In this document: positions 11,601 to 52,890 of the stretch, one piece after another
Numbering within the stretch: the first letter of the stretch is position 1
Layout of the letters: each line of letters opens with the position of its first letter
Assembly: GCF_046119375.1 (NCBI RefSeq)
Contig: NW_027362772.1
Location: 54,312,001-54,376,000, forward strand
From: Phyllobates terribilis
Lineage: Eukaryota
Length of the DNA stretch: 64,000 nucleotides
Direction: 5' to 3'
Made by a program: the position numbers and the translations under genes
The notes under the pieces: generated by a model
Told to the model about the DNA's origin: nothing
The model's database searches: none
The model's input: the letters and a program-made list of their open reading frames with translations, nothing else

Positions 11601-11619
11601 GCTCCACTCTGTTTTTAGT

Positions 11620-15710: not shown

Positions 15711-15775
15711 CCTTCTTGTACCTTCTGCTACATTTCCAAGTTCAAGCTTTTCGAAATGGTTTTTGGTAATCACTC

Positions 15776-16500: not shown

Positions 16501-16973
16501 AACATAAATATCTGACAAAATATTAAAAAAGCTTAACATAGTCAATATCTTTGTAACTCCGAACGTCTTAAAAAATATATTAATTCCTGCTATTCCATTT
16601 GATTGGGCTAAACCTCTATGCTTTTATTGTCTCCCCCACCTCCCACAATACATTCTACATTATTCTTAGTTGTTTTCCTTCATGTAGAATTAACCTACAA
16701 GGAAAGAAAGGGTTTATTTTCATTCCGATATTTGTGTCCCATTGACTTGCATTGGTTTCCGGTATCGGAATCTGCGATATCCGATATTTTTTGGGTATCG
16801 GTCCGATCCAATCCGATCCGATATTTCTCGATATCGGAAGGTATTGCTCAACACTAATTATTTATTACCATTTTTATTATTGCTTCACTAGTATAATTAA
16901 AAATGAACCAGTTTATAATTTTTTAATTAGTTTTATCTTTTGTATTACTTTTATGATTCTAATAAAGGTATTA

Positions 16974-17921
16974 GGCTGCGTGCCCACTATGTGTTTTTCA
17001 AGCGTTTTAGCCGCGGAATTTCCGCAGCGAAAAATTCTTAAAAAACGCTTGGTAATACGTGCCCCATGGTCACCAATGATAATCCGCATGTGCTGTGCAC
17101 ATGCTGTGGAAATTTTCGCTGTGGATTATCATTGCGGAAAAATCCACAGCATGTCCAATTATTTTTGCGAAAGCGCGGCGTAATTGCCGCCATTGACTTG
17201 CATTGAATCGCTTAATATCCGCATGAGTACATGTGCACATGCGGATATTAAGCGATTCAATATGTGGATGGTACTCGGGTCTGGAGAAGAGGAGACTATC
17301 ATCCAGACCCGGGTGCCATAGTACCTGTTAAAAAAAAGAATTTAAAATAAAAAATATACATTATACTTACCTTCTGATGGCCCCCGATCTCCTGTGCGGT
17401 GCATCCTGGCTCCCCGGCGGCTCGCGATGGTGTAAAAGGACCTTCCATGACGTCATTTAGTCATGTGACAGGTCACGCGACCGCTGACGTCGGTGGTCGC
17501 GTGACTTGTCACATGCCTAAGTGACGTCATGGAAGGTCCTTTTACACCACTGCGAGCCGCCCAAGACACCGGACGCACCACAGAGAAGATCGGGGGCCAT
17601 CAGAAGGTGAGTATAATGTTTGTTTGTTGTTTTTTTTTACCATTTTTATTCTTTTTTTAACTATTAACTTGGTCACATTATATAAAATCCATGCCGGTTG
17701 CATGGATTTATATAGTGTGACCAAGTTGTCAAGCACTTTTCCAAGTGATGCTAAAATCGCTTGGAAAGCACTTGACAACCCACATGCGGAAATGCATGTG
17801 AAGAACGCTTGACAAACGCTTCTACCTGGCAGGAAAAACGCATGTACAATCCGCATGCGTTTTTCCTGCCAGGGAGATGCAGAAAAGATCCGGAGCATTT
17901 CTGCTTCGTGGGCACTAGACC
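16974..17921. mobile_element. PIF/Harbinger-type MITE with internal palindromes
   Basis: TTA TSD on both sides; TIR GGCTGCGTGCCCAC / GTGGGCACTAGACC; large hairpins at ~17200-17260 and ~17365-17610. Confidence 0.8.
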
Positions 17922-18160
17922 TTACTAAAATCCCTATGCCTAAATATATTGATCCATAAGAAAGCAAAAACCCCAGGACACATTCAGCCAATTTGTGTCA
18001 CTGGGGAAAAATTCCTTCTTGACCACGAGAAAAGGCGATCAGTCCAAGAACCCTGGATCAAACCTAATTATGATGCTAGTTATATAATTACTATTAATGA
18101 AATAAATGTAATACTATAGGTGTAACATTTTGTCTAATTTAACTGTAACCTACAATTTTA

Positions 18161-21100
18161 CAGCTGAAACCAGAAGTTTCCATACACTATATAAAAAGAC
18201 ACATATGCATGTTTTCCTCAATATCTGACATGAAATCAGAATAAACCTTTCCGGTTTTAGGTCAATTAGGATTACCATATTTTTTAATATTTGCCAAATG
18301 CCAGAATAATGAGACAGAGAGAATGTTTTAAGGCATTTTTATTACTTACTGCAATGTCAAAAGTTTACATACACTCCCTGACAAAAGTTATGTCGCTTAT
18401 CCATGTTATGTAAATTAAAGCTTATAACCTGACGTTAAATTCATCCATTGGTTTTATAAATTACTCTGTTGAAAGCTGAAACCCTCCCAAATTTGGTTTC
18501 GGTTAAGAAAATAAATTGGCATCAATGCTGAAATATTGATCATTTAATGAACACAGAATGGTCAGATTTTGGCAAGACAAAAGTTTTGTCGCCCACAGAA
18601 AGTAATGTGATATTCAAACAAATAATTATCTTAATATACAAATATATGTTGCATAACATTGGTGAATGAAGTTGTGGTGCTATTAGAGTCATATTTAATA
18701 TTTTGTGTGACTTCCATGAGCTAGAAGGACTGCATCCATGCGGTTCAACAATGATTCATACAATTTATTAATGAAGTCATCAGGAATAGCAGAGAATGCC
18801 GTCTTACATGCCTCCCAGAGTTCATCTAGATTCTTTGGTTTTGTCTTCCAAGCTTCCTCTTTCATCCTACCCCAAACATGCTGAATGATGTTCATGTCTG
18901 GGGACTGGGCTGGCCAGTCCTTGAGCACCTTGATCTTTTTTGCCTGGAGGAACTTTGTTGTAGAGATGGATGTATGAGATGGAGCACCATCCTGCTGCAG
19001 AATTTGACCCCTTTTATGATTTGGAATGTAGGAGGTAGCTAATACTTCTTGATATTTTAGGCTATCGATATTGCTTTCCACCTTGCAAATGTTTCGCACA
19101 CCCCATACTGAATGTAACTCCAGACCATGATCTTTCCACCACCAAATGTAACTGTTTTCTGGTATTTTTGATCCATACGGGCTCCAGTAGGTCTCCTGCA
19201 GTATTTGCGAGGACTGTGGTGTAATTCTACTGAAGATTCATCAGAGAAATCCACCTTCTGACACTTTTCCAGCGTCCATCTGTTTAGCAGGCTGTGGGAC
19301 TTTGCAAATGCCACACGTTTTTTATTTGCCTTTTGTTTAGTGCTGGCTTCTGGGCACTGATTCGACCATGGAGGCCATTTCGAGACAGAATCCTACAAAC
19401 TGTTCTAGTTGACACAGGGACTTGAGGTGACCAGGCCTGTTGGAGCTCTGCTGCAGTGGAAGAGGGGCTTGCTTTGGATTATCTAACCAACAAACGTTCC
19501 TCCTGAGCAGTTGTCTTGCAGGGTCTGTGTGACCTGGACTTGTCAAACACATCTCCAGTCTCTTCAAATCTTTTTTTAATTCTTTGTACTTGACGCTGAA
19601 TCACATTAAAGGTGCCAGCCACCTCTGCAGTGGATCTAGTCTTCAGCCTCTTGATAATCAAGGCTTTGGTCGCAGGGTGGATTTTTGGCTGTTCAAGTGA
19701 AGGTCTGGGGTGCTGGGTTTCTTTTTATACACACCCACTAATTAATCGATCATTTACTGAGCACTGGTGAGGATGTAAACTAAGATTTGGTGCAATATAT
19801 GACCAGACAACAAAACTTTTGTCTTGCCAAAATCTGACCATTCTGTGTTCATTAAATGATCAATATTTCAGCATTGATGCCAATTTATTTTCTTAACCGA
19901 AACCAAATTTTGGAGGGTTTCAGCTTTCAAAAGAATAATTTATAAAACCAATGGATGAATTTAACGTCAGGTTATAAGCTTTTATTTACATAACATGGAT
20001 AAGCGACATAACTTCTGTCAGGGAGTGTACACTAAGATTACTATGCCTTTAAACAATTCTGGACTAGCCATATGATGATTTCATGTGTTTGGAAGCTTCT
20101 GATAGGTTTTTTGGCAACATCTGAGTTAATTAGAGACACCCCTGTGGATATATTTTCATGCACACCTGAAACACACTGCTTCTTTGTGCAGCATCATGGG
20201 AAAGTCTAAAGAAATCAGCCAAGATATCAGGAAGAGAATTGTGGAGTTGCACAAGTCTGTCTCATCCTTGGGTACAATTTTAAGATACCCGAAGGTGCTT
20301 TGTTCATCTGTACAAACAATTATACGCAAGTACAAACAAGATGGGAATGTCCAGCCATCATACCGCTCAGGAAGGAGACGGGTTCTGTGTCCCAGAGGTG
20401 AACGTGCTTTGGTCTGACATGTGCATATCAACCTAAGGACAAAAGCAAAATACCTTGTGAAGATGATGGTGGAAGCTGGTAAGGTTGTGTCAATATCTAC
20501 AGTGAAACGAGTACTGTAGCAACATGGGCTGAAAGGCCACTCTGCCAGGAAGAAGCCATTACTCCAAAAGAAACATAAAAAAGCCAAATTAATGTTTGCA
20601 AATGCACACAGGAACAAAGACCTTAATTTTTGGAGACATGTCCTGTGGTCTGATGAAGCTAAAATTGAACTTTTTGGGCATAATAACCATCGTTATGTTT
20701 GGAGGAAAAAGGGAGAAGCTTGGAAGCCTAAGAACACCATCCCAACTCTGAAACACGGGGGTGGCAGCATCATGTTGTGGGGTTGTTTTGCTGCAGAAGG
20801 GACTGGTGCACTTCACAAAATAGATGGCATCATGAGAAAAGAAGATTATGTGGCAATACTGAAGCAACATCTCAAGACATCAGACAGGAAGTTAAAGCTT
20901 GGGCGGAAATGGATCTTCCAAATGGACAATGACCTGAAGCATACTGCCAAAATGGTAACAAAGTGGCTTAATGATAACAAAGTCAATGTTTTGGAGTGGC
21001 CATCGCAAAGCCCTGATCTGAATCCTATTGAAAATGTATGGGCAAAGCTGAAAAGGCTGCGAGCAAGGCGACCTACAAACCTGGATCAGTTACACCAGTT

Positions 21101-21427
21101 TTGTCAGGAATGGGCCCAAATTCCGACCAACTATTGTGAGAAGCTTGTGGAAGGATATCCCAAACGTTTCGCCCAAGTCATTCAGTTTAAGGGCAATGGT
21201 ACCAAATACTAATGAAATGTATGGAAACTTTTGACTTTGCAGTAAGTAATAAAAATGCCTTAAAACATTCTCTCTCTCATTATTCTGGCATTTGGAAAAT
21301 ATTACTAATTATGGTAATCCTAATTGACCTAAAACGGGAAAGGTTTATTCTGATTTCATGTCAGATATTGAGGAAAATATGCAGATGTGTCTTTTTATAT
21401 ATGTATGTAAACTTCTGGTTTCAACTG
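18161..21427 (+). mobile_element. Tc1 (Sleeping Beauty-like IR-DR, DD34E), interrupted by a second Tc1
   Basis: TA flanks; TIR CAG(C/T)TGAAACCAGAAGTTT.CATAC; transposase pieces 20184-21212 with WSDEAK, QMDNDLKH and SPDLNPIE. Confidence 0.93.
18372..20027 (-). mobile_element. Tc1-like element with DD35E spacing (catalytic E appears as Q), frameshifted
   Basis: TA TSD; long TIR CACTCCCTGACA(A/G)AAGTTATGTCGCTTATCC...; FSDES; QQDGAPSH...SPDMNIIQ with 35 residues between D and Q. Confidence 0.92.
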
Positions 21428-21479: not shown

Positions 21480-24010
21480 GGCCATTACTACCTCTTGTGG
21501 TCGGCATTCCACAGTCCGACTACTCTGACTGTAAAGAACCCTTTCCTGTTTAGGTGCCAGAATCGCCTTTCTTCCACCCTTATTGATTCCCCCCTGGTCC
21601 TTAGTATGGTCTTTGGAAGGTATAAGTCATGTGCTAGTCCTTTGTACTGACCACACATATATTTATACATGTAAATGAGATCCCCTCTAAGCTAAACAAG
21701 CTCAACTTTTCCACCTTTCATCATATGAGAGGCCTCCATCCCTTGTAATATTCTCGTTGCCGCCTTTGAACTGACTCTAACGTCTGAATATCCTTTTCAA
21801 AATGTTGATCCCAAAACTGGATCCCATATTCTAGATGTGGCCTCACCAGTTATTTATAAAGGGGTAACAATACGTTGGGATCGCGGGATTTTATTTCTCT
21901 TTTTATACATCCTAAAATCTTATTAGCTTTTGCGGCTGCTGCTTGACATTGAGTAGTGCTGCTCAGCTTACTTGTAACCAGAATACCCAAGTCCTTCTCC
22001 TGTTCTGTAGTCGTGAGTATACTCCCATCTAATGTGTATGCAGCAATAGGATTACTCTGTCCTAGATGCATTACTCGACATTTATCTACATTAAACCTCA
22101 TTTGCCTAGTGTTTGCCCATTCAGTCATCTTATCCAGATCATTCTGCAATATCATAAAGTCAAGATCAGATTTTAATATACTACATAGTTTAGTGTCGTC
22201 AGCAAAGACTGACATTTTACTCTCAATCCCATCTCCCAGAATCGGTCCTAGCACAGATCCCTGCGGCCCCCCACTGCTGACTATATCCCATTTAGAGAAT
22301 GTACCATTTATGACGACTGTTTCCTATCATTTAGCCAATTCCTTACCCATCTACATATAGTTCCCCCAAGGCCTAGCTTCTGTAGCTTCAGTATAAGGTT
22401 GCTATGTGGTACAGTATCAAATGCCTTTGCAAAGTCCAGATAAATCACATCAGCCGCATTACCAACATCCAGATTTGCACTTACCTCCTCATAGAACCCC
22501 AACATGTTGGTTAGACACGACCTATTCTTCATGAATCCGTGCTGATTATTATTTATTATATTATTCTCTGCAATATAACTCTGCCGGTCATCTCTTATGA
22601 TGCCCTCAAAAGCTTTGCACACTACTGATGTCAGACTTACCGGACAGTAGTTTCCTGGATCCACCTTCTTACCTTTCTTAAATATCTGTACCACATCGGC
22701 TATCCTCCAAACCTGTGGCACTACCCCTGTTACAAGAGAGTCTAAGAAAATGAGATTCAGCAGTTTGTCAATTACTGAGCTCGATTCCCTCAGTATCCGT
22801 GGATGAATACCATCTGGGCAGGGGGATTTGTCAATGTTTAATTTGCTCAGATGCAGGCGTACTTCTTTTTGTGTTAAACTTGTTATATCAAGTGGTGAAT
22901 TTGATTTTTGCCCTGTTGAAAGATCCCTGGAACAGAAAGTCAGTTGGTGAACATGGATGAAAAGTGCATGTTTAATATCTCAGCCTTTTCTTTGTCCTCT
23001 ATAATTATCTTGTTATTATCGTCTTTTAAGGGGCCGATACCATCTGATTTTTTCTTTTTGGCATTGATGTATTTATAAAAATTTGGGGATTTATTTTAAT
23101 GTCGCTGGTGATTTGCTGCTCTGTAGATAACTTTGCTAGCTTGATTTCTTTTTTACATTTCTTATTTAGGTCTTTATACTCCTGAAATGCTATTTCTGTA
23201 TTCTCGGCCTCAAGATTTTGAATGCCCATTGTTTTTGTCTTCTTAAACTTTGTACTGTCTTATTTATCCATAATGGTTTATTTTTATTCCTGGACATTTT
23301 ATTACCAGAGGGTATCAATTTTCTACAGGATTCTAGTAGTATTTCCTTAAACATGCCCCATTTACATTCGGTATCCCCAGTTACCATGACATGGTCCCAG
23401 TCTACACAATTAAGCTCTTCCCTTAATTTGTTGAAATCAGCTTTTTTAAAGTTCCAGGTTTTTGCATTTCTTTTTTGTAATGTTTTATTGAATATTACAT
23501 TGAAACTTACCATATTATGGTCACTGTTTCCCAAATACTCCCGGACCTGTAGATCTGAAATTGCATCTGGTCTATTTGTCAGACCCAGATCTAGTAGATT
23601 ACCTCCCCCGATTGGTTCATCTACCATAATAATGACCTTATTATTATTTGTTGCATTTTTAATTTGTCACAGCATTTCGTCCTCTACCAGTTCAGCTATA
23701 TTAGGAGGCTTGTAACAAACTCCAATTAGCGGCTTTCCATCATGGCCATCCCCATCTACATTTACCCAGACTGACTCTACATTGTCGCAGCTTCCCCCAA
23801 TGTCATCATTGAGCACAGGTTTTAAGTTGGATCTTACCAAAATACACACCCCTCCACTTTTTTTGTCTTTCCTGTCCTTTCTAAATGTAGTATATCCCTC
23901 CATGTTTGTCACCCAGTCAAGGCTTTCACCCGGCCAGGTTTCCGTAATACCCACCATATCATATTCTGTGACCGACTTAAGAGTCTCTAGTTCATTAATT
24001 TTGTTTGTGA
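21480..24010 (-). pseudogene. CR1 ORF2 (APE endonuclease + reverse transcriptase), fragmented
   Basis: VGITETW...RKDR...GGV; GNSDH; QHGFMKNRSCLTN; YLDFAKAFDTVPH; FADDTKL. Confidence 0.92.
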
Positions 24011-37313: not shown

Positions 37314-38427
37314 CTAAGCAGGTGACTGTGCTCTTGATAGTACTCTCTGGGCATCCTCAGCCATAGCCTCTAAACATCGGCTCAGCACAAGGTAGCTAGC
37401 ATGAAAAGCGATCCCACCAGTGGCTAAAGGACCTAGAAGAGGAAATTTATGCAAGAAAACTCCTGCCACTTCCAACCCAATTCCTGTAGCCGAACCTAAC
37501 AATTTCTGAACGAGCTCACGCGTTACTCCCTTCCCTGCAGGACTCTGGATCTCTACCATGAGCTTTGGAACCGGCACCCCTGACTTATGGGAAAGGTTGG
37601 CTAAAGAGTCACCATCCAGTCCTAGTTCTTGGCGATAAGTGTCCAGACGGGCAGTGAGCAAAGATAGATCGCATGCAATGGCAACTCCAGGGATAGGAAC
37701 GCTAGCCACCAAGCTGGAGAGAAGTGCCACCTTCCAGACTTCTTGAGAAAGCGCTTCCTTTTTCTTCTCAATGACTTCAGCTGACAGATTTGGGAGGGAG
37801 AGCATGAACGCTCGCAATTTGTGACTGGTTAGATTCTTCTCCAGATAACCCAATAATCTATGAAACTCTGGCCCTGGTAGTTTAGCCGGTGATAGTACAA
37901 AGACTTCGTCTTCTCTTGGTCCTGGTGGCATCTCATCATCTTCACAATCTTGGATGAAGATGCTCTTCTTCCCTTCCTTCTTCAGCTCGAGAACGAGAGA
38001 TTTGTAACTACTCGAGGCCTCCTGCCATGGCGTGAGGAACAGCAGAGTAAAGTCGTATCGATTCATGTGAACGCTCTCCAGATACTTTTTTGGCTGAGAC
38101 TCAAGACTTTCCATTCCAGGAAGATCCCACAAGCTGGCTTTGGGATATTTAAGACTGGCATACTCAATTGGGTTTTCTGGATTTCCACCGTGAGCCGAAC
38201 CATCCTCTCCATCCTTCAGGCCACGAAGGGAATTCAAGATAGAGTGACGGAAGCCAGGGTTACCACCCATTAATGCCAGATCGAAACGGGTGTCTAAAAG
38301 GGAGTCCAAACTGCTCTGGATAAATCTGACCATTTCAGAGATCCCGCCTCGTTCTAGTGCAGACTGTAGTTCAGCAATTTCTTCATAGCCGATCACTTCG
38401 TAACCCTGCTGTGCAAGACACAAGGCT
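37314..38427 (-). CDS. irgq: IRGQ terminal coding exon: second, degenerate IRG domain plus C-terminal helical region
   Basis: 369-aa ORF; polypyrimidine acceptor tcttttcctacag| at 38428, in frame with the phase-2 donor at 39749. AQQGYEVIG...RFDLALMG, WDLPG, WKVALLSSL..PIPG...CDLSLL and TGGI...MAEDAQRV match IRGQ/IRGC as recalled. AATAAA at 37268-37273. Confidence 0.85.
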
Positions 38428-39748
38428 CTGTAGGAAAAGAGCAGGACATGATGAACTAAGACGCAAAATTTATGTTTCTGCTCCCTATTACAGTATTGTT
38501 TCTACACTGCAGCAACTACTGGATGTCGTCTCCATAAGGATGAAATCACACATCCAGAATTGGATTCAAGGGGGATTGGAAATAAAACGGACAGGCTTAC
38601 ATTTCTGCAGGATCCACTTCTGGTGTTGGCTAAAACAATGGCATCAAAAACTGCACATGTGATTGCAGCCTTGAAGGGGTATTCTCAAGTTTTGAAGTTA
38701 TCCTCTATCCGTGTGATAGAGCATAACTTCACGATCGCTGAGACCACAAGTGATCCCGAGAACCAGGGCTCTGAAGTGTCTCTTGTGATGGAGCGGTGGT
38801 CGATCATAGACATTCATTATGGGACCACAGGAAATAGCAGAGAGCTCAGTTCAACTGGTCTTCAGCACTCCCAAAAGAATGAAGGGAGTTGCACTGCGCA
38901 TGATCGACCACTGCTCCATTCACACAGGACACTTCAGAGCCCTGGTTTTTGGGATTGGTGGTGGTCCCAGTGACCGGTAAGTTATGGATAGGGAATACAC
39001 CTTCAAAGTGCAGCTATCAATTTTTTTTAATATGTTCTCCCTTCATTACACATCATTTAGCCCTCCGAACCTCCTCCTATCTGCCAGCATCCACTGTGCC
39101 TCTTCTGATCAGAAAGCCCAGCATAATGTCTTGCGAGTGTTGTGCTGCAGGACCTTCTAATTAGAAGAAGCGCCAAGAATGCAGAAGATACGTGGAGGTT
39201 CGCAGAGCTCTGGTCCAGCAGACACGGACTACCAACCAGAGTCCTGCAAATCTTTTCCTCTCCTATTAGCCTCCTTTTCTTTGCTCTATTTTGTCTCATT
39301 TTACAAATTAAACTGATAAATATAGAAATAAAATGTTCTCCTTGTGTCAAAAGAAGCTCAGTCATGCTCCTAACTTATGTATGTGACGGTAATGAAGCTG
39401 GCTGCAGCAGGAGCCTGCCCCCACTAGGACAAGAGATGGTGAAGTCTCACCCATGCTAAGGCCAGTCACCAGCCAAGATAGTAAGTGATGAAAAAGTGGC
39501 AAGAGCATCCAAAGTAGAAAAGTGCCGAGTCTCTGCCAGTGTCTGCCAACTAATGAGCTCAGCGCTGCAGAAAATAACAGGCACAAGGAGCAGCAAGAGA
39601 GACTCGGCGCTCCCCTTACCAAAGTTTTTTTTTTTTTTTTTTATATAAATTTTGATGGTTTCCTATTGAAGTTTTCTGTAGAGGTTTCCATTAAACCATG
39701 GTCTACTCTTACGTTGCCATAGTACTCAGAGGCCAAGTATCTACCCAC

Positions 39749-40395
39749 CTGCCAAGTTCTTTAGATGTAGTTTCTATTTTGGCCTTCAACGATGGCGCAT
39801 CCAATTTGTATGGCTCGAAACCAGACATCAGGAAAAGCGGTAGAGCTTCCTTCTTTGCCACGTCATTAAATGGCAAGAGGGCGACCTTGCGCAATGCCGA
39901 CAACACTTCTACCCTGGAGTACTCTTCTTTCATCCTCCTCTTTAGGGTATGCATATCACAGTCCACCTTGGTGCGCACTAAGCAGAGTCTTTTAGACTGA
40001 GAAAGGGCACTGAGAGCCAAGTCAACATGGGCTTGCGTGAACTGAGCATCCGTGACCAAAAGCAGAAGGTCGGCCTCGGTTATCCACTTCTCGGGAGATC
40101 CATCTTCTAGCGGGAGCTCCCAGAAGGTTAGACCGGGGTGGGAAGGGTGAAGGTACAGCAATGGGCCATCAGGCTTATTAGGATGGAGAAATGCTGCTCT
40201 CGAATTTTGGCCATTCTCGTTGAAGCCAAGAAGGGCCTGTATCAAAACTGTTTTACCAACACCTGGTCCTCCTGCAACAGCCACGGAAAAGTCCCAACAG
40301 TCTTCAAGGGGGGGATCCTCATGGTGTCCTTCATTTTCATCTTCCAGTGGCTTGAATTCAACCTCCTTCAGACTTAGCTCACTGAATGTTTCCAT
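39749..40395 (-). CDS. irgq: IRGQ first coding exon: N-terminal GTPase-like domain
   Basis: Acceptor ctattgcag| 3 nt before the ATG; G1 GGPGVGKT; PGLTFWEL..W..EADLLLLV (recalled human IRGQ PGLFLGEL..WAAEANVLVLV); G4 TKVD; donor AG|GTGGGT. Spliced length 1761 nt = 586 aa. Confidence 0.82.
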
Positions 40396-40829
40396 AACCT
40401 GCAATAGATGGAAAATTACAAATGATGGAGAATTAGGGCCCGAGTGCAGTCCGATGTTTCCCATAGACTCATTGACTTGCACGGCCGAATGCCATCCAAA
40501 TATCGGATCAACCTCGGACATGCAATGATTTGTCAGACGAACCCTAGACTAACATTTGTTCGAGTGCGATCCAATGTTTTGTCGGATCTGAAAATACACT
40601 CGCATGCACCTGCTCTTAAAGGGGTATTCTGGTCAAAGCAAGTTATCGCCAACCAACTGGATTGGTGATATCAGCTAGATTGGTGTGCGTACAACCACTG
40701 GGAACTCCACTGATTCCATCAGTTCTCCTCTGATCTTATGATGAGGGGAGAACTGATGGGATCAGTGGAAGTCACTGCGGCCAGGAGGGGGTTGAACCCC
40801 AAGCTTGGACAACCCCTTTAAGAGGTGCA

Positions 40830-41880: not shown

Positions 41881-42131
41881 GGGTAATAAGTTGTTCGGAA
41901 TACCTCATCCCTAAAGGGGTGCTCACACATTGTGTATGCTTACTCCAGCACACTCTTCATCTAAGGCTAGTTTCACACGTCCGGATATTTCCGGTACCGG
42001 AAAAACCAGTACCGGAGATATCCGTGTCCCGTGTGTGTTTTACGTGTTGCATCTGTCAGTGAATATGAATAGCGGTACCAGAGCGCCAATAACAGGGCAA
42101 AAATATTAAAAGGACTGATTTATTAATACAC

Positions 42132-42173
42132 ACACAACGCGTTTCGGTGGACACAGCCACCTTCATCAGGTGT
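42132..42173 (-). ncRNA. Minimal type I hammerhead ribozyme (mirror copy)
   Basis: Exact reverse complement of the plus-strand copy, produced by the palindrome. Confidence 0.7.
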
Positions 42174-42174
42174 G

Positions 42175-42216
42175 ACACCTGATGAAGGTGGCTGTGTCCA
42201 CCGAAACGCGTTGTGT
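42175..42216 (+). ncRNA. Minimal type I hammerhead ribozyme
   Basis: ACAC-CUGAUGA-A-GGUGG(cugugu)CCACC-GAAAC(GC)GU-U-GUGU: conserved core, 5-bp stem II, palindromic stem III, 4-bp stem I. Confidence 0.7.
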
Positions 42217-42924
42217 GTGTATTAATAAATCAGTCCTTTTAATATTTTTGCCCTGTTATTGGCGCTCTGGTACCGCTATTCATATTCACTGACTGTCCTT
42301 TTTCCCCCTGTTGGGGTGCGGTAGAGCTGCCTTTAATCTATTGTTTTTTCACCTGTGGGAGCAATTTAATTAAAATTACTACCCTGGTTTTCCAAGCTGC
42401 GCTGCCTTAACCCCTCCGGAACGCTGCCGGGGGTGTTGGTGAAGCTGGGCGTCTATCTCCGCATTACATGCTACTAACCTGACCACGTGATATACCACCA
42501 AGAGATCAGGATCTGTGAACGCCGCTGGAAATAGATGACAGCCACCAACAGAGCGGAGCTTGTGGAGCTTTACACTGGGGTTGTGCAGAGGTGCACAACT
42601 TCATAAGGTTAGTAGCCATCCCCACACCCCTCTACAAATTGCAATACTGAGTCACCCATTGCGCCTTGTTCTCTCCTCTCTTTACGTGTTGCATCTGGCA
42701 CCTGGGAATCAGCGCTACAGGTAACGCTGTTCCCAAGCGCCAGTGCTGAAAGCTGCCCTCATCATGGTTCCTTGCCGGCGCTGCGATCAGCACAAGCAAG
42801 GACAATGATGAGAGTAGTGGTAGTCTGATCCTGGTGTCCCAACCTGTAAAAATAATAATAAAATAATAATACCTGTGGCGCTGGTTCCCATGCGCCGATC
42901 CGTATCACACTGATGTCATCTGTG

Positions 42925-44136
42925 TGTAGCACCCTGAGGATTCGGCTGCTACAGGAGTATTGCACCTCAACCCAGAGGTGTGATATTCCACTCCCGGGTA
43001 AGGAAGGAGTGTGGAACTGAGCTCAGATAGACTGCATGCACTACATACATCCCATTCCAGAGGAGCAGGCCGACGGCACTCCCACTTAGAAATGTGCAGG
43101 TGCGACCGAGCCTGTTCCTGGCTGGAGTGGGAGGGGGGAGGAACATCCCATGTAGTGTAGGGGCAGATAGGGGGAGCAGTCTGGGTAGTGGTAGGAGCTC
43201 ATTGGGTGCTGGTCACCTGAGCTCACACATAGAGGGCTATATAAGGTGGGCACCATCAAAGATCAGGGTCAGACGCAGAGAGGAAGTCAGATGCAGAGGA
43301 CAAGCCTGCAGCAAGAGAGAGAGAAAGAAACAACAGCCCTGGAGAGAGAGTGGAGTGCAGAAAGACCCAGAGGGGGACAAAGAAGGGACCCAAGAACCCA
43401 AATAAGAACACCGGGTGAGGAGTCAGCAGAAGGGTACCGGAACCCAAGCTGGTGGGGGTAAAGACATTCCCCAGCCAGAGACCGGAGACCGTGGGCAGAG
43501 TCTGTCACGGTCACCCACTACATTCACCCTGAAGGCACACCACATGGAGGGTCAGGGAACCTGAGGCCAAAGGTTGCCCAACAGAAGGCCCGAGGGAGCT
43601 GGATTTAGGTGAATCACTGGTGGGGACGGCTGAAGGAAGGACAGAGGGAGAGCTCAGGGCCACGCTCCGGACTTGTTTGGGGGTTGGCCGGATCCAGGAC
43701 CTGGTGGACGCAGCACGGCTCGGGAGGTCACTTGGAGCTAGAGTGACCAGGAACATCTGCAGTAAGTAAAGACCCTTAACTGCACTACCCGAGTCTGTAA
43801 TCATTACCGGCTGCACCGCACCACCACAACCCCCATCCTCTGCGCCTGTCCCCTCTGAGGCTATACCCCTCCCGTTGGGGGTTATCCCATCAAGCTGCGC
43901 ATCCACCATCAGCCTCAGCGGACCCTGCAGCAGCGGCGGCCACAGTGACCGCATCACAACGGGTGGCGTAGTCGACACAACGAACTTTAATAACATCAGT
44001 AAGGACTGCCACATAACACTGAGCTTGACGCCCTGGGCACGGGACCGGGTCACAGCCGCTCGGAGACTACAACCCCCCATCTGATCCGGTGCCGGGTATT
44101 CCCCTCACAAAGGAATATGTCCCAGGGGGCGCGTCA
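42925..44136 (+). repeat. 5' LTR (1212 bp)
   Basis: Direct repeat of 46723-47934; all ORF-track translations in the two copies are identical; TATA-like CTATATAAG near 43237. Confidence 0.97.
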
Positions 44137-46225
44137 ACTTTGGCGTAGTCGGCAGGATTACGTGCCCGCAACACCCGGGTACTGCGTGCCTGAAGAAAAG
44201 AGCAAGTTTACCTTAGAAAGAAGACTCCTGCCGGTTCCGGAGGGTCCACGCCATCGGACTCCATCACCAGTCGTTTCCCGCCGATTGTCCGCCATTTCCA
44301 GCTTGTTCCCGCCATCTGCCGAGTTTCCCGCCACTGGGCGACGATTCCCGCCAAAACCGCAGATTTCCCGCCTTGGAAGAGCAGCGGACGCCATTATGGG
44401 CGTGCCAAAGGAGGGCAAGAGGCCACATCCCATCGTGGGCCGGGACAGAAAATGGCGCCAAAAGTGGAAACCGCCCCCACCAACAGAGACTGTGATGCTG
44501 GAGGTGTCTGTCAGCGTGAAAGAACTACCCCTGGAGCTGACAGTCACCGAGTTGCCCCGGGACCGCCCTCGAAGTGGGAGGAGACGAAAGAAAAGAGCAA
44601 AGATGGGTGTCGCTTGGAGCAGTCTGGAGCGAGCGCACCCGGAGGCAAGAGGTCTAACAAGGAGTAGCGGAGAAGCTCACCCGGAGATGGAAAGAAAGCA
44701 GAACAGCACCGGCCCGCTGGCCAGGAGTCTGCTAGAGACCGAGGAAGGAGGGCAGAGCAGCACCGGCCCGCTGGCCAGGAGCCTGCCGGAAGCAGAGCAG
44801 AGCAGCACCGACCCGATGGTCAGGAGCCTGCTGGAGTCAACAACCCCGCTAGGCTTAGCGGAGATCCTGGCGCAGCTTCCCCGAGATCGGGAGTGCGCGC
44901 GGAGTGCCCTGGAGGGCCTCGCGGGAAGGATGGCCCGAGTGCAGAGGGAGATCCTGGCGGAGTGGGGCCGGGAGATGGCCCAGCAAGCTGGAACCCGTCC
45001 ACTTAACCCGCTCCCTTGGAAGAAGACATCGACTGCCTCTGCGGATGACGCGGGAGGACCCAAGGCCGGAGACGGCGCAGAAGAGGGAGCGAGACGCATG
45101 GCAGCAGGTAAGGGGGATGCCTATACCCCATACCGGAAGACCGCTTACCTGCCCCAGCTCCCCGTCGCAGAGCCCGAAGGTCCCCCGGCCGTACCCGAGA
45201 CCGCCATGACATCGCCGCCGACTAGGCCCCGACCGGAAGCCGCCGTCGCGACCCCGATGACGTCACGCATCGTGACCCGGAGCGTGGCGCCGGAAGAGGA
45301 GCCTCCGGCCTGGTCACAGGGCCTAGCATTTCCGGGCGCCGCATCCAAAGCAGAGCCATCTACCTCCGCGGAGCCTCCGGCCTGGTCGCAAGGCCAGGTA
45401 ACCCAGGGCGCCGCCGTCCTAACGGTGCCCTTCACCTTCCAGGTGCCCCAGGCCTGGCCGCAAGGCCTGGGCAACCCGGGCGCCATCACCACCGCGCCCG
45501 CGCCCGTAATACCAAGGGTGCCACACCTGGGGGAGGACCTCTTCGGCCAGCTCACATGGCCGGACGGGCGGCCCTTCATCTGGCCCGAAGGGTACCCTGA
45601 GCTAGAGCGGCAGCAAAGACTAGGGCCCTTGTGTGAGCCCCTGATCCCGGCTCCAAAGCCCGTGACTCGGGTCTCGCCTCCACTCGAGGAAGCCCAGTTC
45701 GTGTGGGACCCCACGGGAGAAGATTTGATGGGGTTCACCGGAGAGACTCGGGCAGCTGCAGCAGAGCGTACCGAGTGTTGCCGTCAACAGCTGGCAGAGT
45801 TCAAGAGAGAGCGGGAGGAGAGGCGGGCCAGAGAGCAATGGGCCCGGACCCGCAGCGCGGAGCAAAAGAGCCGGACCAGAAGGGACCCCCGTGCAGCAGA
45901 TCGTCCCCGTACCATCGGGACGGTAATAAAGTTTAATGCGCAGCATGGGTGGGGCTTCATAAAGGACCAGAACACCATGGGTGACGTCTTCGTTACCCGA
46001 CGGGATGTCGAGTCTCACCTGCCAGAGGGTCACAAAGGCCGTGACCTCTACGTCGGTGACGAGGTAACGTTCACCCGGCACAAGTGTGCCAAGGGACCTT
46101 ACGCCCTCCACGTGCATCGCTTGACGGAGGAGGAGTTGCGGTGCGAGGAGGAGGAGCAAGAGGACCCGGACGGGTCTGAAGAAATCACCAGCCATAAGAT
46201 AAGAGCAGGAGGCAGACGCCGTTGA
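44117..46225 (+). CDS. 702-aa intact ORF (alternative start 44396): basic patch, helical segment, Pro/Ala repeats, coiled coil, C-terminal cold-shock domain
   Basis: CSD at ~45911-46122: GTVIKFNAQHGWGFI (RNP1-like), DVFV (RNP2-like), GDEVTF..HKCAKGPYALHV; high GC content and no stops over 2.1 kb. Confidence 0.85.
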   Translation: MSQGARQLWRSRQDYVPATPGYCVPEEKSKFTLERRLLPVPEGPRHRTPSPVVSRRLSAISSLFPPSAEFPATGRRFPPKPQISRLGRAADAIMGVPKEGKRPHPIVGRDRKWRQKWKPPPPTETVMLEVSVSVKELPLELTVTELPRDRPRSGRRRKKRAKMGVAWSSLERAHPEARGLTRSSGEAHPEMERKQNSTGPLARSLLETEEGGQSSTGPLARSLPEAEQSSTDPMVRSLLESTTPLGLAEILAQLPRDRECARSALEGLAGRMARVQREILAEWGREMAQQAGTRPLNPLPWKKTSTASADDAGGPKAGDGAEEGARRMAAGKGDAYTPYRKTAYLPQLPVAEPEGPPAVPETAMTSPPTRPRPEAAVATPMTSRIVTRSVAPEEEPPAWSQGLAFPGAASKAEPSTSAEPPAWSQGQVTQGAAVLTVPFTFQVPQAWPQGLGNPGAITTAPAPVIPRVPHLGEDLFGQLTWPDGRPFIWPEGYPELERQQRLGPLCEPLIPAPKPVTRVSPPLEEAQFVWDPTGEDLMGFTGETRAAAAERTECCRQQLAEFKREREERRAREQWARTRSAEQKSRTRRDPRAADRPRTIGTVIKFNAQHGWGFIKDQNTMGDVFVTRRDVESHLPEGHKGRDLYVGDEVTFTRHKCAKGPYALHVHRLTEEELRCEEEEQEDPDGSEEITSHKIRAGGRRR
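44141..44159 (+). promoter_or_regulatory. Primer-binding site complementary to the tRNA-Ser 3' end
   Basis: TGGCGTAGTCGGCAGGATT is the reverse complement of ...AATCCTGCCGACTACG-CCA, the vertebrate tRNA-Ser(AGA-type) 3' end as recalled; it starts 4 nt after the LTR. Confidence 0.88.
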
Positions 46226-46713
46226 GTGCGGCAGAGCAGGAGGCTGTATATAGTTGCCTGTCGGGGCACAGTGAATCGGAACTGAAACTGAAACTGGAAC
46301 TGTTGTTGCTGCTAAAATAGTCCCCGTTGGGACCAGCGAACTGTTACCTGTAACCCTTTCCATACCAGGCTGAGGACTGTGAGCAGCCATCCCTTTCCCT
46401 TTACCTGGCCGGGGACTGAGAACGGCCAAAATTCCCTGTACATAGTTGCGCTTGCTAAAGCGCCCCCTACCGGTTTTATAGGAAAAACCATTTTTCTAAA
46501 AGACTGTCGCACTCTACCTGGTCACGAGTTGCACGGTGACCAGAGGAACAGAAGAGAGAAAGAGACGACGAGAATGTTGTTTACCTGAAAAAGTTTATAT
46601 ATATATTTATATAGTATTTCGTATAATATTTAATATGTTTTACATGTTTATAAAATGTTGTATGTTTTGGTGTTTTTTTGTCTTTGCAGCCCGAGGACGT
46701 GCTGTGATTTACC

Positions 46714-46722
46714 AGGGGGGAA
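46714..46722 (+). promoter_or_regulatory. Polypurine tract
   Basis: AGGGGGGAA directly abuts the 3' LTR. Confidence 0.8.
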
Positions 46723-47934
46723 TGTAGCACCCTGAGGATTCGGCTGCTACAGGAGTATTGCACCTCAACCCAGAGGTGTGATATTCCACTCCCGGGTAAG
46801 GAAGGAGTGTGGAACTGAGCTCAGATAGACTGCATGCACTACATACATCCCATTCCAGAGGAGCAGGCCGACGGCACTCCCACTTAGAAATGTGCAGGTG
46901 CGACCGAGCCTGTTCCTGGCTGGAGTGGGAGGGGGGAGGAACATCCCATGTAGTGTAGGGGCAGATAGGGGGAGCAGTCTGGGTAGTGGTAGGAGCTCAT
47001 TGGGTGCTGGTCACCTGAGCTCACACATAGAGGGCTATATAAGGTGGGCACCATCAAAGATCAGGGTCAGACGCAGAGAGGAAGTCAGATGCAGAGGACA
47101 AGCCTGCAGCAAGAGAGAGAGAAAGAAACAACAGCCCTGGAGAGAGAGTGGAGTGCAGAAAGACCCAGAGGGGGACAAAGAAGGGACCCAAGAACCCAAA
47201 TAAGAACACCGGGTGAGGAGTCAGCAGAAGGGTACCGGAACCCAAGCTGGTGGGGGTAAAGACATTCCCCAGCCAGAGACCGGAGACCGTGGGCAGAGTC
47301 TGTCACGGTCACCCACTACATTCACCCTGAAGGCACACCACATGGAGGGTCAGGGAACCTGAGGCCAAAGGTTGCCCAACAGAAGGCCCGAGGGAGCTGG
47401 ATTTAGGTGAATCACTGGTGGGGACGGCTGAAGGAAGGACAGAGGGAGAGCTCAGGGCCACGCTCCGGACTTGTTTGGGGGTTGGCCGGATCCAGGACCT
47501 GGTGGACGCAGCACGGCTCGGGAGGTCACTTGGAGCTAGAGTGACCAGGAACATCTGCAGTAAGTAAAGACCCTTAACTGCACTACCCGAGTCTGTAATC
47601 ATTACCGGCTGCACCGCACCACCACAACCCCCATCCTCTGCGCCTGTCCCCTCTGAGGCTATACCCCTCCCGTTGGGGGTTATCCCATCAAGCTGCGCAT
47701 CCACCATCAGCCTCAGCGGACCCTGCAGCAGCGGCGGCCACAGTGACCGCATCACAACGGGTGGCGTAGTCGACACAACGAACTTTAATAACATCAGTAA
47801 GGACTGCCACATAACACTGAGCTTGACGCCCTGGGCACGGGACCGGGTCACAGCCGCTCGGAGACTACAACCCCCCATCTGATCCGGTGCCGGGTATTCC
47901 CCTCACAAAGGAATATGTCCCAGGGGGCGCGTCA
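46723..47934 (+). repeat. 3' LTR (1212 bp)
   Basis: Offset 3798 from the 5' LTR; followed by the TSD TGTG. Confidence 0.97.
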
Positions 47935-48075
47935 TGTGCGTGTTCAGTGTGAGACACTTTTGCGGACCGTGCATCCGCAAAAAAACGGACATTCTACACG
48001 TGTCAGTGTCTCCGGTACATGTGGAAACCGTCACCACTCGTACCGAAGGTACTTACGTGTCAAAGAGCCCTTAAT

Positions 48076-48307
48076 CAGTGTTTCGCAATCTCCAGTCCTC
48101 AGGGCCCCCAACAGATCATGTTTTCAGGATTTCCCCATATTGGACAGGTGAGAGAACCCGTGGCTTCTTTGTATTAGTATACTAAGATTTACAAAGGTGA
48201 TGGAATTATTATCAAGGCATCAAAAATTGCCACAGGTTCTCTCACCTGTCCAATCCTGAAAACATGATCTGTTGGGGGCCGTGAGGACTGGAGATTGCGA
48301 AACACTG
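48076..48307. mobile_element. hAT-type MITE with long inverted arms
   Basis: CAGTGTTTCGCAATCTCCAGTCCTCA / TGAGGACTGGAGATTGCGAAACACTG; right flank ATCTAGAT. Confidence 0.8.
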
Positions 48308-48813
48308 ATCTAGATGTCCCCAACTATATCCTTCCAGAGAATGCCCCCGTGAACTCAAAGTTTACATATATTTTGCCCCTTTCAACCAAGAAACCCCAGA
48401 AAATCCACGACAGTTGGCAACTATAGAAATTGCGGTCCTTCTACAGACTACATTTCACAGACTTGTGAGCCCGGACTCATTTAGGGGAAACACAACTCCC
48501 CAGCTGTTATCAACCACAGTTCAGATCATGCCCCGGCAGCTATAGGATGCTAGGTGTTGTAATCCTTCAACAACTGAAGGGCCAGAGGCTATTAGAGCAT
48601 GCTGGGTCCAGCAGCTGGAGGGTCACAGATTGGTGCAACCAAAAAGGAGTAAGGGGCCACTTCTACCTCCAAAGTAGGTGGAATTGTGCCTTTTGATGAG
48701 CTATTGGACTGCAAAGGGCCCATATATTGTTCTTGCACAGGGGTCCTTTTCTGTCTATGTCCACCAGTGCAATCAGTACAACAGGGAATATACAGAGAGG
48801 CGGCAGACTATTA

Positions 48814-49134: not shown

Positions 49135-50013
49135 TTAAGGGAATAATCCAAACCTAGGGATAGGAAAGGAGGCAGGGCAGGGATTAGGAGGGGGATGGGA
49201 AGAAATGGTAACCTGATTACAATAGGAGGGTGGAAGGAAACAATGTCTTTCTGTAAATATTTACAAGTGTGGTTACAATGTATCACAGCGGGGGACATCA
49301 GACAAGCTTGGCATGCAGGGGGAGATGTGGGGATGGGGTTGGGGTCTCACTGGTTTCAGGTGCAGCAGATCTCCTGGTGGAAGGAGACGGCCAGTGGATG
49401 TCAGGGCCTGGCCTTCCTCTATCAGCAGCTGATCCAGGGTGTATATATGTATCTCTCCTCCTCCTTCCTCTCACATGTCCCTGTTTTCCTTCCTCCCCTC
49501 TGCAGTGACGCTGCTATATCCCCTCCCTGCCCAGAGCTGTATACAGCACAGCGGCCTGACAGCAGTCACCTGCTACTCCCCCTGTCTATTGTACAGCAGG
49601 CAAGTATATATTTATGCATCCTTTCGGCCTACCCTTCTGCCCGCCATCCTGACCCTTTGTCTGTAATGCTGCCCCTTTGTTGTGGAACCCCATTGTTGTC
49701 TCGTATTATTGTCACCTTTCCATTTTGCTATGGCCTAGAAGAGTAACTGGCAGTGATGCCCGGGGGTACAAACTTATGATAGGATAGCCTGAATTTAACC
49801 CTGTGCTAAGGCACTTTGCAAGGGCTGAGGGCATATTTACAGAAAGTGGAGAAGGGCCACTTTGGCCGCAGCAGCTGTCCTCTCCCCGTGACTCCCGCCG
49901 ACCACTTTATCACAAGTCCTTATAAATCTTTCATGTGATGCTATTTTGGAGATATGTACGTCAATGCTTTCTCATCGCGCTCCATTGTACATTTTCCATT
50001 CTCCGTTTTAGAC

Positions 50014-50678
50014 ATGGCCGACGCTGAGATACCTGAAGATGTGGCATCTGGACCACCTGCCCCTGAGACACCAACTCCAGAGACACCACCACCACCTCCA
50101 GAATCTCTACACTTCACCATTGCCATCATCGGACCAAGAGGTTCTGGAAAGACCACACTAGTCCGATCTCTTTGTAACCACACGGAACAATTTGGTCCTG
50201 GTTTCCTAGACTCCTACTTTAGGGATGAGGGTGGAGAACATGGGGTTGACCGGCACACTTATCCACCTTTACCTAATGTTACTCTCCTTGATTGCCCGGG
50301 GTATAAACCCAGTGACTCTGCTACAGTATATATTGACAGCATCAAGCCTGACACGGTGCACTGCCTGGTGGTAACATTTCGGGAGACGATCACTGACGCA
50401 GACCTGCAGATACTAGCAGCCATAAAACATTTAGGGAAACCCGTCTGTATGGTGCAAACACATATAGACCTTACTATGCACACGGAAAAGAGACAGCAGG
50501 GGAAGGGTTACTGGAGAGGGCAAACATTGATGGGCATGAGGGGTAAAGCGCAGGAACAGCTGGGTGGGCATGGGATGCCAGGGTCCGGTATATTTCTGGT
50601 GTCTGGTCTAGAACCCCAAAACTACGACTTCCAAGGAATGGTGGATCATATCGAGAAGGAGATTCTGCAATGGAAGAG
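50014..50678 (+). CDS. IRGQ-like tandem GTPase gene, coding exon 1 (IRG-type G domain)
   Basis: Acceptor ctccgttttag| 2 nt before the ATG; G1 GPRGSGKT, G3 LLDCPG, G4-like THID, G5-like FLVSG, then YDF; donor AG|GTAAGA (phase 2). Confidence 0.82.
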
Positions 50679-51845
50679 GTAAGAGATGACCATCGATGAG
50701 ACCCATTAACCCTTTCTAAATTGAAGCTGTGATCCAGATATATGTTGTTTGAGGAGTTGACCATGTAATTCATGGACCACCACGGCCGATCCTGAGTCGG
50801 GGTCTACCTCTATCATATCCATATGCCCTGCTTGAAATTTGGGCATGCAGAGATGCTGGGACTTAAATTAAAGGTACATTATTAATGTATTCCCCCTAAA
50901 GTGTCTGTATTTTAACATTCCCTTTAGGGTTAGGGTTAGGTTTAGGGTTAGAGTTAGTGTACGTCATCACTTTATGGAGCGTGCAAAGGAGCTGAACTCA
51001 CTCCATACAGCAGGGGTGCCGGCACTGAAGAGTGACTCCGATCTTGCATCAATTTACATCTTCCCACTATGGTGTCTGTATTTTAACATTCCCTTTAGGG
51101 TTAGGGGTAGAGTTAGTTTACGCCAGAAATGCGCCATCATTTTATGGAGCGGGCACAGGAGCTGAACTTACTCCATACAGCAGGGGTGCCGGCTGTGTTA
51201 TACATCTGGCACCGAAGAGTGACTCAGATCGCGTCACTTTAACCTTTTAGATACCGCTGTCAATTGTCGGAATGGGAGGGGGATGCAAACGGCTCCAAAG
51301 CTCATCGCCTCTGGTGTGTGACTTGATCGCTGGATTGGCATGGGTCTGCTAAATGCCCCCCCCCCCATGTCGTCGCTATCTTGGTACTCCTGGGCTTCAT
51401 AGGAGACAATGATTTTTCACTGTATACTGCCATACTGAAGTATCATAGTGTAAAGAGCAAGCGACCAAACAGTTCCTAGGTGGACTAAAAAATGCAATGT
51501 AAAGCAAAGAAAGTTAGAAAAAAAATATATACATAGAAAAATTGAATCCCCTCTTTTTCAAACAAACAAAAAATTTGATATTACCGTTTCCATAAAAAAT
51601 GACTGCTTTCTCCTAGTAATAGCGTCACACCTATTCATAGATTGTGAGTAGTATTGCACAATAGGACATCAATTTTGAGGGGCAAAAATGAGGGAAGTCT
51701 TGTTTGACTTTACATTAATATGAATTACCGATTGGACACCAATCCAATCTCCTGTCGTCCAATCCACACCTCTTTATAAAATGCATGCGGATAAAGCGCC
51801 AATGAGAACCCGGCCTTAAAGTAATTTTTCTACTTTTGTTTGCAG

Positions 51846-52890
51846 GCCCATCCCTTTTACCACTGAACCTCACTGTCAAGAACTGGTGTCGGTGTTTGAG
51901 GTCCAATGTGACCAAGAAGGACTTTCAGAGTTCTGCTCTCTCCTCAGCATCTTCTTAGATAACCCTCCGCCTGTGTCCGCCGTTGTGGGTGTGACGGGCA
52001 GCGATAAAGAAGCGACGGTCTCTGCTCTCTGTGAGCCCCCACTTTCTGGTCTTGTAGTGAAGCCACTCCCTGGGCCTGGGACACCCCCAATGTCCGTGGA
52101 GCAGTACTTGCAGAACTTGCAGTCGGAGGCCTGTGATGTCTACCTGATTTTGGGTTCGGGGATGGACAACAGCTCCCGCGCTATACTGGTTGAAGCCTTG
52201 GTGGCAGCTGGCAAACACTGTATGCTGATCGGCGGGGAGGGAGATAGGAAACACAAACATGATGTCAATGGGCAAGAGGGGGGCAGTAAAAAGTGCCATG
52301 CTGGCACTGACCTACCAGGACTGAGGGTAGCGTTAGAGAAGGGGGCTCCACAGTTGGTGAGAGAAAGGCTCCTTCATGCCATCCCCACCATCATTGTCCA
52401 GCTGGTAAGAAGAGAGCGGAGAAGACTTATGACGGGCATATATGATATCTGTTTGGATGTATGTGCCAAGTCAAGTCAAGGGCATTTGCAGGACGCCCTG
52501 GCCACCCTTTCCTCTAAGTTGTTGTCGTTCCGCGCCCGTTTTGGTTTGGATGAAGATTCGCTGATGCTAATATCACAAGTGACAGGGTGCAGTCCTGAGG
52601 ACTTGCGTGCTGAGATTCAGTGCCCCCTGGCACAAGACCCAAGTGAAGACCAACTGCTTCAACTAACATCACAACCACTTTCTCTGACCGAGCTCGTCTG
52701 GAGTTACGTGCCCCGCTGGGGCGGAGGAGAAGAAGCTTCCTCTAAACTGTCTGCAGACCGTACTTACCGTCTACTGGTGGAAGCTGTATGGGGCATGGCG
52801 GAGGATGCGGAGAGGGTACTGCTGCATGGCTGTACCAATCAAAAGGTGGCAAAAGAAAGGACTGCCTTCTGCCACTGGCCTTGTGTGTGA
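51846..52890 (+). CDS. IRGQ-like tandem GTPase gene, coding exon 2 (degenerate second IRG domain plus helical C-terminus)
   Basis: Acceptor tacttttgtttgcag| in frame with exon 1 (1710 nt total = 569 aa); VGVTG, PGPGTP, FGLDEDSL, LRAEIQCPL and MAEDAERV are IRG C-terminal motifs; AATAAA near 53022. Confidence 0.82.

Follow-up and report, generated by a model that had tools for sequence, protein, structure and literature searches.

Within the window, as we call the whole 64,000-nt stretch of Phyllobates terribilis DNA that was analysed, a long terminal repeat (LTR) retroelement occupies positions 42925..47934 of the plus strand; its family is called A here. An earlier reading made from the letters only (the sequence-only reading) had described it as a very young element without pol, whose single gene encodes a protein with a C-terminal cold-shock domain (CSD). 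Exact alignment of the two 1212-bp LTRs gives 0 mismatches, the match ends at the LTR borders, the ends are TG..CA, and the target-site duplication (TSD) is TGTG, as that reading had stated. The absence of differences across 1212 sites indicates that the insertion is very recent. The primer-binding site (PBS), which had been assigned to tRNA-Ser, complements the 3′ end of that tRNA over 19 nt, a polypurine tract (PPT) adjoins the 3′ LTR, and the interior measures 2586 bp. The genome has 36 occurrences of the tRNA-side motif matching the PBS, and ARAGORN identified tRNA-Ser(TGA) at two of the four places checked.

The window element is a member of a non-autonomous LTR retrotransposon family and not a one-off. 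Exact matches to the junction of LTR end and PBS number 23,890 in the 10.57-Gb genome, against 0 for the control. All 20 copies that were picked for varied frame length have LTRs, PBS, PPT, a 4-bp TSD of their own and an interior of 2170–2614 bp without pol. LTRs are identical in 15 of the 18 single elements of this set. The other two loci (L046 and L047) are tandems, in which two interiors and three LTRs share one target duplication. LTR pairs of the 25 measurable elements differ at 0–10 sites and interiors are 68–96% identical to that of the window; near-identical LTR pairs around diverged interiors mean that many subfamilies moved recently. The window's own subfamily is represented by 1,205 matches to a 30-nt stretch of the CSD. 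The nearest protein record (97%) is labelled P. terribilis, and the best 150 of 37,343 candidate matches are all identical over 90 aa, 147 of them in frames of at least 673 aa.

The open reading frame (ORF) is intact beyond the window copy. Thirty unselected junctions, being the first 30 listed and all at the start of one contig, comprise 20 elements with a full CSD (17 in a frame open from Met to stop), 4 without the CSD, 4 bearing gag and 2 unclassified. A further 10, taken from the next 13 listed with 3 of longer spacer skipped, gave 7 with the CSD and 3 with gag. By extrapolation the genome would hold ~11,000–20,000 CSD elements, ~80 Mb, versus ~5,500 helper-type junctions.

The protein and the selection on it

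The 702-aa frame of the sequence-only reading (44117–46225) is open throughout; its length as a protein was probably overstated. The frame begins in U5 of the 5′ LTR and runs on through the PBS. Codons 9–93 show a ratio of nonsynonymous to synonymous substitution (dN/dS) of 1.02 in 30 open-frame copies, the stretch is homologous to the non-coding leader of the helper family H1 described below, and the ATG in the LTR is missing from several subfamilies; for these reasons the predicted start most likely lies at 44396, giving a protein of 609 aa. All aligned A and A2 subfamilies in which the region survives have the Met at 44396; its context has a purine at −3 and G at +4. Variant classes in 28 leaders (25 synonymous, 66 missense and 1 stop, against 26.5, 62.6 and 2.8 expected) are those of neutral sequence, and the +1 frame of the same leaders is about equally open. 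Translation from the LTR ATG was rejected on the dN/dS near 1, these neutral variant classes and the loss of the ATG in subfamilies.

The sole Pfam match of the 702-aa ORF is the CSD (aa 601–667, 37.5 bits, E 2e-9, above the cut-off). With 31 sequences as input, AlphaFold2 returns a mostly disordered model (mean pLDDT 49.5), in which the exceptions are confident helices at aa 165–199 and 452–496 of the 609-aa protein and a five-strand barrel at 505–575. In Foldseek the barrel lies at a root-mean-square deviation of ~2 Å from CspA and YBX1, and the PDB matches listed are all cold-shock domains. A five-strand OB fold with RNP1 and RNP2, as modelled, and the profile score above the cut-off place the domain among the CSDs, in agreement with the sequence-only reading. 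The amphipathic first helix is recognisable in a second CSD family, C, and in Ranitomeya and Anomaloglossus proteins.

That the ORF has no reverse transcriptase (RT), RNase H (RH), integrase (IN), protease (PR) or CCHC knuckle was likewise borne out, the CSD being its only Pfam match and homology to gag or pol being absent. A hidden capsid fold was found neither in the AlphaFold2 model nor among the Foldseek PDB and viral matches listed; Pfam returned no gag match, and hhalign against the helper gag gave a probability of 0.2%. Of 29 interiors, 28 are free of gag or pol remnants, and the remaining one belongs to the recombinant L159. Other parts of the protein are less constant. Three repeats of 45–54 nt are present, in line with the earlier mention of repeats (QSSTGPLARSL- and PPAWSQG-type), and repeat number runs from one to three or more across subfamilies; the NLS-like (nuclear-localisation-signal-like) RRRKKRAK, to which too much weight had been given, differs among subfamilies. 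Since both vary, neither is a fixed feature. A PWKK motif once considered common to ORF and Gag was rejected, as only 3 of 21 A/A2-type rows have it.

A codon model fitted to 30 copies gives a dN/dS of 0.076 for the CSD, 0.16 for the first helix, 0.20 for the block preceding the second helix and 0.15 for the second helix; twice the log-likelihood difference against a dN/dS of 1 is 374, 118, 211 and 143, respectively. The 27 closest copies yield 0.073, 0.12, 0.21 and 0.15 in the same order. The N-terminal part (0.65), the Pro-rich linker (0.71) and the whole ORF (0.31) have higher values. By this model the CSD and its three flanking blocks are under strong purifying selection and do not evolve neutrally. 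The copies are dispersed insertions with their own TSDs, and the selection thus acted during replication.

Helper families and the source of the domain

The flanks of diverged copies revealed two gag-pol families, H1 and H2. H1 is a Ty3/gypsy family with a PNMA-like CCHC gag, a 1448-aa RT-RH-IN pol and LTR pairs 98.6–99.7% alike. The PBS, the LTR end, the start of the leader, a near-identical PPT and the 4-bp TSD are common to H1 and A, and H1 is thus a co-resident tRNA-Ser-primed partner of the kind postulated by the sequence-only reading. The two are ~70% identical over 535–630 nt of U5, PBS and leader, and have no detectable similarity in U3. H2 is older (LTR pieces 90–98%) and has a different Ser-type PBS, which we take to be that of tRNA-Ser(CGA). 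A weak dUTPase-like match (E 0.004, below the cut-off) lies between protease and RT in one H2 locus (L100:3-1151). The older CSD family C (LTRs 91–97%) has the PBS of H2. Scores over U5 and leader follow the same pairing, with A–H1 at 265–380 versus A–H2 at 140–213, and C–H2 at 201–221 versus C–H1 at 113–173, and the PBS type agrees within both pairs. The recombinant L159 combines an A-type U3 and 3′ end with a U5 95–96% identical to that of an H1 subfamily and an H1 leader; recombinants between helper and CSD elements would be expected from co-packaging. This locus still has a strong donor-like site, within sequence that otherwise differs, and of the CSD just the final strand.

Mobilisation of A in trans by H1 is very probable. 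The Gag of H1 does not carry a CSD, and among 17 gag/pol loci, 3 of them covered in part, the only CSD is that of a nested element with its own LTRs. The earlier suggestion that the CSD replaces nucleocapsid is not sustained: an element without capsid needs the Gag of a helper, and since this Gag has its own CCHC knuckle, the CSD need not take that place.

Four LTR types, A/A2, B, C and D, carry the CSD gene. Family B (7 loci) has an unrelated 1.02-kb LTR and a Ser PBS, and family D is a single 3.3-kb locus; in both, the ORF directly follows the PBS and leader. The same holds for all resolved CSD elements, in which the ORF sits in the usual place of gag. Related proteins are on record from Ranitomeya variabilis, R. 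imitator, Anomaloglossus baeobatrachus and Bufo bufo, and those of the three genera appear to lie on LTR elements. Two Bufo bufo records named 'Y-box-binding protein 2-A-like' (P0046 and P0058) group with the element CSDs and are probably transposon ORFs. In a tree that holds no host YBX and leaves 6 of 19 inner branches open, A, C and the dendrobatoid proteins (85/81) stand apart from B, D and Bufo; support for this is weak, and one unrelated long branch falls inside. A genome search for host YBX returned as its best 150 matches only element-like ones, at ~40 bits. Word-indexed homolog searches gave at least one match each, and at least three with the Bufo protein; ESM Atlas matches (0.76–0.85) are leads only and include no element cluster.

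Capture of the CSD from a host Y-box gene is probable. A profile of 15 element-type proteins scores YBX1/2 at 49–51 bits, bacterial Csp at 40 or less and Lin28 at 17.6 or less, and the Bufo CSD aligns to YBX without gaps over 69–72 residues. The affinity to Y-box proteins holds for this broad profile and for the Bufo protein, and not for the window protein alone. Both Phe of the Y-box surface are kept, and an aromatic residue was gained in the last CSD strand. Like YBX1 and YBX2 (FRGY2), the element protein has a CSD of the same loop length and an Ala/Pro-rich disordered region upstream (for the YB-1 layout, PMC6040738 in the part available). In contrast to them, its CSD has ~30–35% identity with two stacking residues replaced, helices are added, the N-terminal part is much longer, and the tail is short and without the alternating basic and acidic stretches of YBX.

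Splice signals, feature positions and surroundings

A new observation is that conserved predicted splice signals bracket the CSD. The donor-like site at 45108 falls where the protein is weakly conserved, and the acceptor-like CAG stands 33 nt before the 3′ LTR, with a similar site in B, C, H1 and H2. Splicing between them would remove the CSD while keeping PBS and PPT, and the spliced RNA would encode the N-terminal half only. Alternatively, the acceptor-like AG may belong to a conserved motif preceding the PPT. A GTAAGT donor-like site, kept in 21 of 24 aligned copies, overlaps the predicted poly(A) signal.

Positions of the features of the element in the window (aa numbers refer to the 609-aa protein)
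Feature	Position	Strand	Remarks
5′ TSD, TGTG	42921..42924	+	4-bp duplications also in 20/20 near-identical copies
5′ LTR, 1212 bp	42925..44136	+	identical to 3′ LTR
TATA-like box	43238..43244	+	same place in 23/24 aligned copies; U3/R border would lie just downstream
AGTAAA, predicted poly(A) signal	43765..43770	+	24/24 aligned copies
Second PBS-like 11-mer within U5	43964..43974	+	sequence switches along with the PBS between the A/H1 and C/H2 pairs
PBS, tRNA-Ser	44141..44159	+	19-nt complement of tRNA-Ser 3′ end plus CCA
Non-coding leader common to gag-pol family H1	44160..44395	+	putative packaging region; ~70% over 535–630 nt of U5, PBS and leader; dN/dS 1.0
ORF, 609 aa, largely disordered, two long helices and CSD	44396..46225	+	predicted start
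Conserved amphipathic helix, aa 165–199	44888..44992	+	pLDDT ~78–92; dN/dS 0.12–0.16
Predicted splice donor	45105..45113	+	intron would start at 45108; 24/24 A copies, 2/3 A2, 6/9 C loci
Long charged helix, predicted coiled coil, aa 452–496	45749..45883	+	AlphaFold2 model; dN/dS 0.15
CSD	45917..46117	+	Pfam PF00313; Foldseek; dN/dS 0.07–0.08
Predicted splice acceptor, T-rich tract and CAG	46665..46689	+	just upstream of PPT; 29/29 copies with located PPT
PPT	46714..46722	+	near-identical in H1
3′ LTR	46723..47934	+	identical to 5′ LTR
3′ TSD, TGTG	47935..47938	+	matches 5′ TGTG

A PBS-like 11- to 12-mer is found in U5 ~150–180 nt upstream of the PBS in helper and satellite families (the window; L089, L092, L097, L112, L117, L118, L120 and L177) and is absent from family B. 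It may be a second tRNA site, a tRNA-fragment decoy or an old duplication. A 189-aa ORF on the minus strand of the LTR was rejected as a gene: Pfam gives no match, and the longest such ORF ranges from 37 to 217 aa across 27 LTRs. An Rfam search returned a single match, far below the gathering score.

The element is flanked by divergent frames of interferon-inducible GTPases (IIGP/IRG), some of them fragmented, at 37314-40548 (−) and 49939-52890 (+). A perfect 119-bp inverted repeat with a 1-nt spacer (42055-42293) lies 630 bp upstream of it, and a nested inverted repeat resembling miniature inverted-repeat transposable elements lies at 48074-48309. Farther off, the window contains a hAT transposase in two frames, with zf-BED and dimerisation domain (8253-10939, +), followed by long tandem arrays (11006-15751), and fragments of a Tc1/mariner transposase (20520-21212, +) and of a reverse transcriptase (22308-22979, −).

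Role of the protein and place of the family

With moderate confidence we read A as a young, high-copy element without gag and pol that has conserved its sole protein, that is likely mobilised by H1, and whose CSD, likely of Y-box type, would bind the element's own unspliced RNA. H1 would supply Gag, RT and IN for the packaging, reverse transcription and integration of A. Given the predicted splice sites, the CSD protein would come from unspliced genomic RNA alone, and the CSD is predicted to bind mainly in cis the RNA that encodes it. The protein may oligomerise through its helices, and the bound RNA would be more stable and take a larger share of the helper particles. A benefit in cis is suggested because selection follows the replicating lineages of dispersed copies and the derivatives without CSD stay a minority. 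Host YB-1 supports the stability of retroviral RNA and particle production (PMC6040738, available part), and the ova of poison frogs are rich in gypsy RNA (PMC6278860, likewise in part).

Several observations weigh against binding of the element's own RNA by a Y-box CSD in a satellite of H1. The U3 regions of A and H1 are unlike and their U5 and leader only ~70% identical, and another, unsampled Ser-primed family could be the true helper. The window protein alone scores bacterial Csp above YBX (23.8 vs 19.9 bits), an alignment profile of A and C does so narrowly (25.1 vs 24.5 bits), and the top Foldseek match of the window CSD is CspA. The window protein, like all frog element CSDs listed, has other residues in place of the Trp of the Y-box KWFN and the His of VFVH, presumably the RNA-stacking residues W65 and H87, and RNA binding may therefore be weak or altered. 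A pattern search, the pattern having no positive control, found 0 precisely spliced genomic copies, which would follow if spliced RNA fails to be propagated but equally if the two sites do not act together. Derivatives without the CSD exist (4 of the 30 unselected junctions), three of them with LTR pairs at least 99% alike, and the CSD is thus not strictly needed in cis. The copies behind the dN/dS values were chosen for open frames, are mosaic and were fitted on a single fixed tree.

The loss of the stacking residues, with the rest of the CSD and two helices conserved, suggests a protein–protein surface and would fit a protein engaged in counter-defence, which blocks silencing of the piRNA, tRNA-fragment or HUSH type or sequesters host Y-box proteins, partly in trans for element and helper. 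Derivatives with young LTRs and no CSD are what action in trans would produce, and the PBS-like copy in U5 could serve to decoy tRNA fragments. However, a pure public good should lose out to deletion derivatives, while 20 of the 30 unselected elements keep the CSD, 17 of them open, and Pfam, profile and Foldseek searches gave no homology to a known anti-silencing factor. We regard counter-defence as unlikely. It is quite improbable that the protein enters the particle and, with packaging complete, works on single-stranded DNA, strand transfer, nuclear import or integration; subfamilies differ in the basic motif, and Gag and IN of the helper already supply such steps.

The origin of the CSD is a separate matter, compatible with any of these roles. 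An autonomous Ty3/gypsy lineage may once have had the CSD as an accessory ORF, and the present families would then be its deletion derivatives and not independent captures by satellites. A shared autonomous ancestor would explain the related CSD genes on four LTR types, and the integrase candidates examined are a small fraction of 173,710. Nevertheless, the gag/pol loci without CSD, the position of the ORF in place of gag after PBS and leader, and the 28 of 29 interiors free of gag/pol remnants speak against this origin and make it distinctly unlikely. Finally, NCBI annotates relatives as host genes, such as the Bufo bufo records above, as would fit an ORF kept by selection on the frog, for instance as a domesticated gene or restriction factor. 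Yet the copies compared for dN/dS are dispersed insertions, each with a TSD of its own and near-identical LTRs, and the values describe replicating lineages and not orthologous loci. A neutral passenger is excluded by values far below 1, and we consider either version of this explanation very improbable.

LTRs, PBS, PPT and TSD, many dispersed copies without pol and a partner with common cis signals identify A as a non-autonomous LTR retrotransposon; the gag and PR-RT-RH-IN of an autonomous Ty3/gypsy element are missing, and H1, which has gag and pol, differs from A also in carrying no CSD and in its unrelated U3. TR-GAG and LARD elements, as described in the available part of PMC6022998, are like A in being LTR-bounded, longer than 2 kb, devoid of RT, RH and IN and mobilised in trans. 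TR-GAG keeps gag, whereas the sole ORF of A encodes a CSD protein that is not gag by the hhalign comparison above; LARD has none of the retroelement domains, whereas A has an ORF under strong selection (whole-ORF dN/dS as given above). The nearest frog precedents are 1A11 and Xretpos of Xenopus, with LTRs, no pol, a long ORF and embryonic transcription, the 1A11 protein being of 71 kDa (PMC4585706). By its description in the part of that source available, 1A11 is set apart from A: the ORF is called Gag-like, copies number tens to hundreds, the element is thought immobile, and a CSD is not mentioned there.

No LTR element bearing a CSD was found in the literature searched; Repbase, Dfam, subscription journals and supplements lay outside this search, and A may therefore be catalogued without comment. 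The words 'cold shock' and 'cold' occur 0 times in the main text of PMC6338049, PMC6278860, PMC12208295 and PMC12822217, whose deposited repeat libraries may hold the family unnamed. A match in the carp literature was set aside, as it concerns a host gene (PMC13583293, available part). Tentatively, and short of a claim we would defend firmly, the CSD elements may form an undescribed class of satellites in hyloid frogs, comprising several LTR lineages with Ty3/gypsy helpers of their own, in which the sole gene, lying within a retained intron and so read from genomic RNA only, encodes a host-derived Y-box protein that tags or shields this RNA; the satellites would thereby exceed their helper ~threefold and take up nearly 1% of the 10.6-Gb genome.

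Non-retroviral ORFs between LTRs are known from gene-capturing retroelements such as maize Bs1, MaLR and defective transducing retroviruses, and bdelloid LTR elements reportedly have extra ORFs. In these the ORF is gag-like, decaying, selected at the level of the cell or part of an autonomous element, whereas A has no gene besides the probably captured domain, which several families conserve. From a non-autonomous LTR element one expects gag at most, if any gene at all.

Some annotated 'Y-box-like' genes of frogs are probably transposon ORFs. The family also helps to explain the large unclassified share of repeats in poison-frog genomes, where 62.6% of reads are unclassified (PMC12208295, available part). 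That a host-type RNA-binding domain other than gag is the sole gene and has outlasted several family turnovers in conserved form implies that it serves the fitness of a hitch-hiking retroelement; a function of this kind is not described in the literature searched. The element thereby gives direct access to the question of how parasitic RNAs gain helper particles or evade control in the germline.

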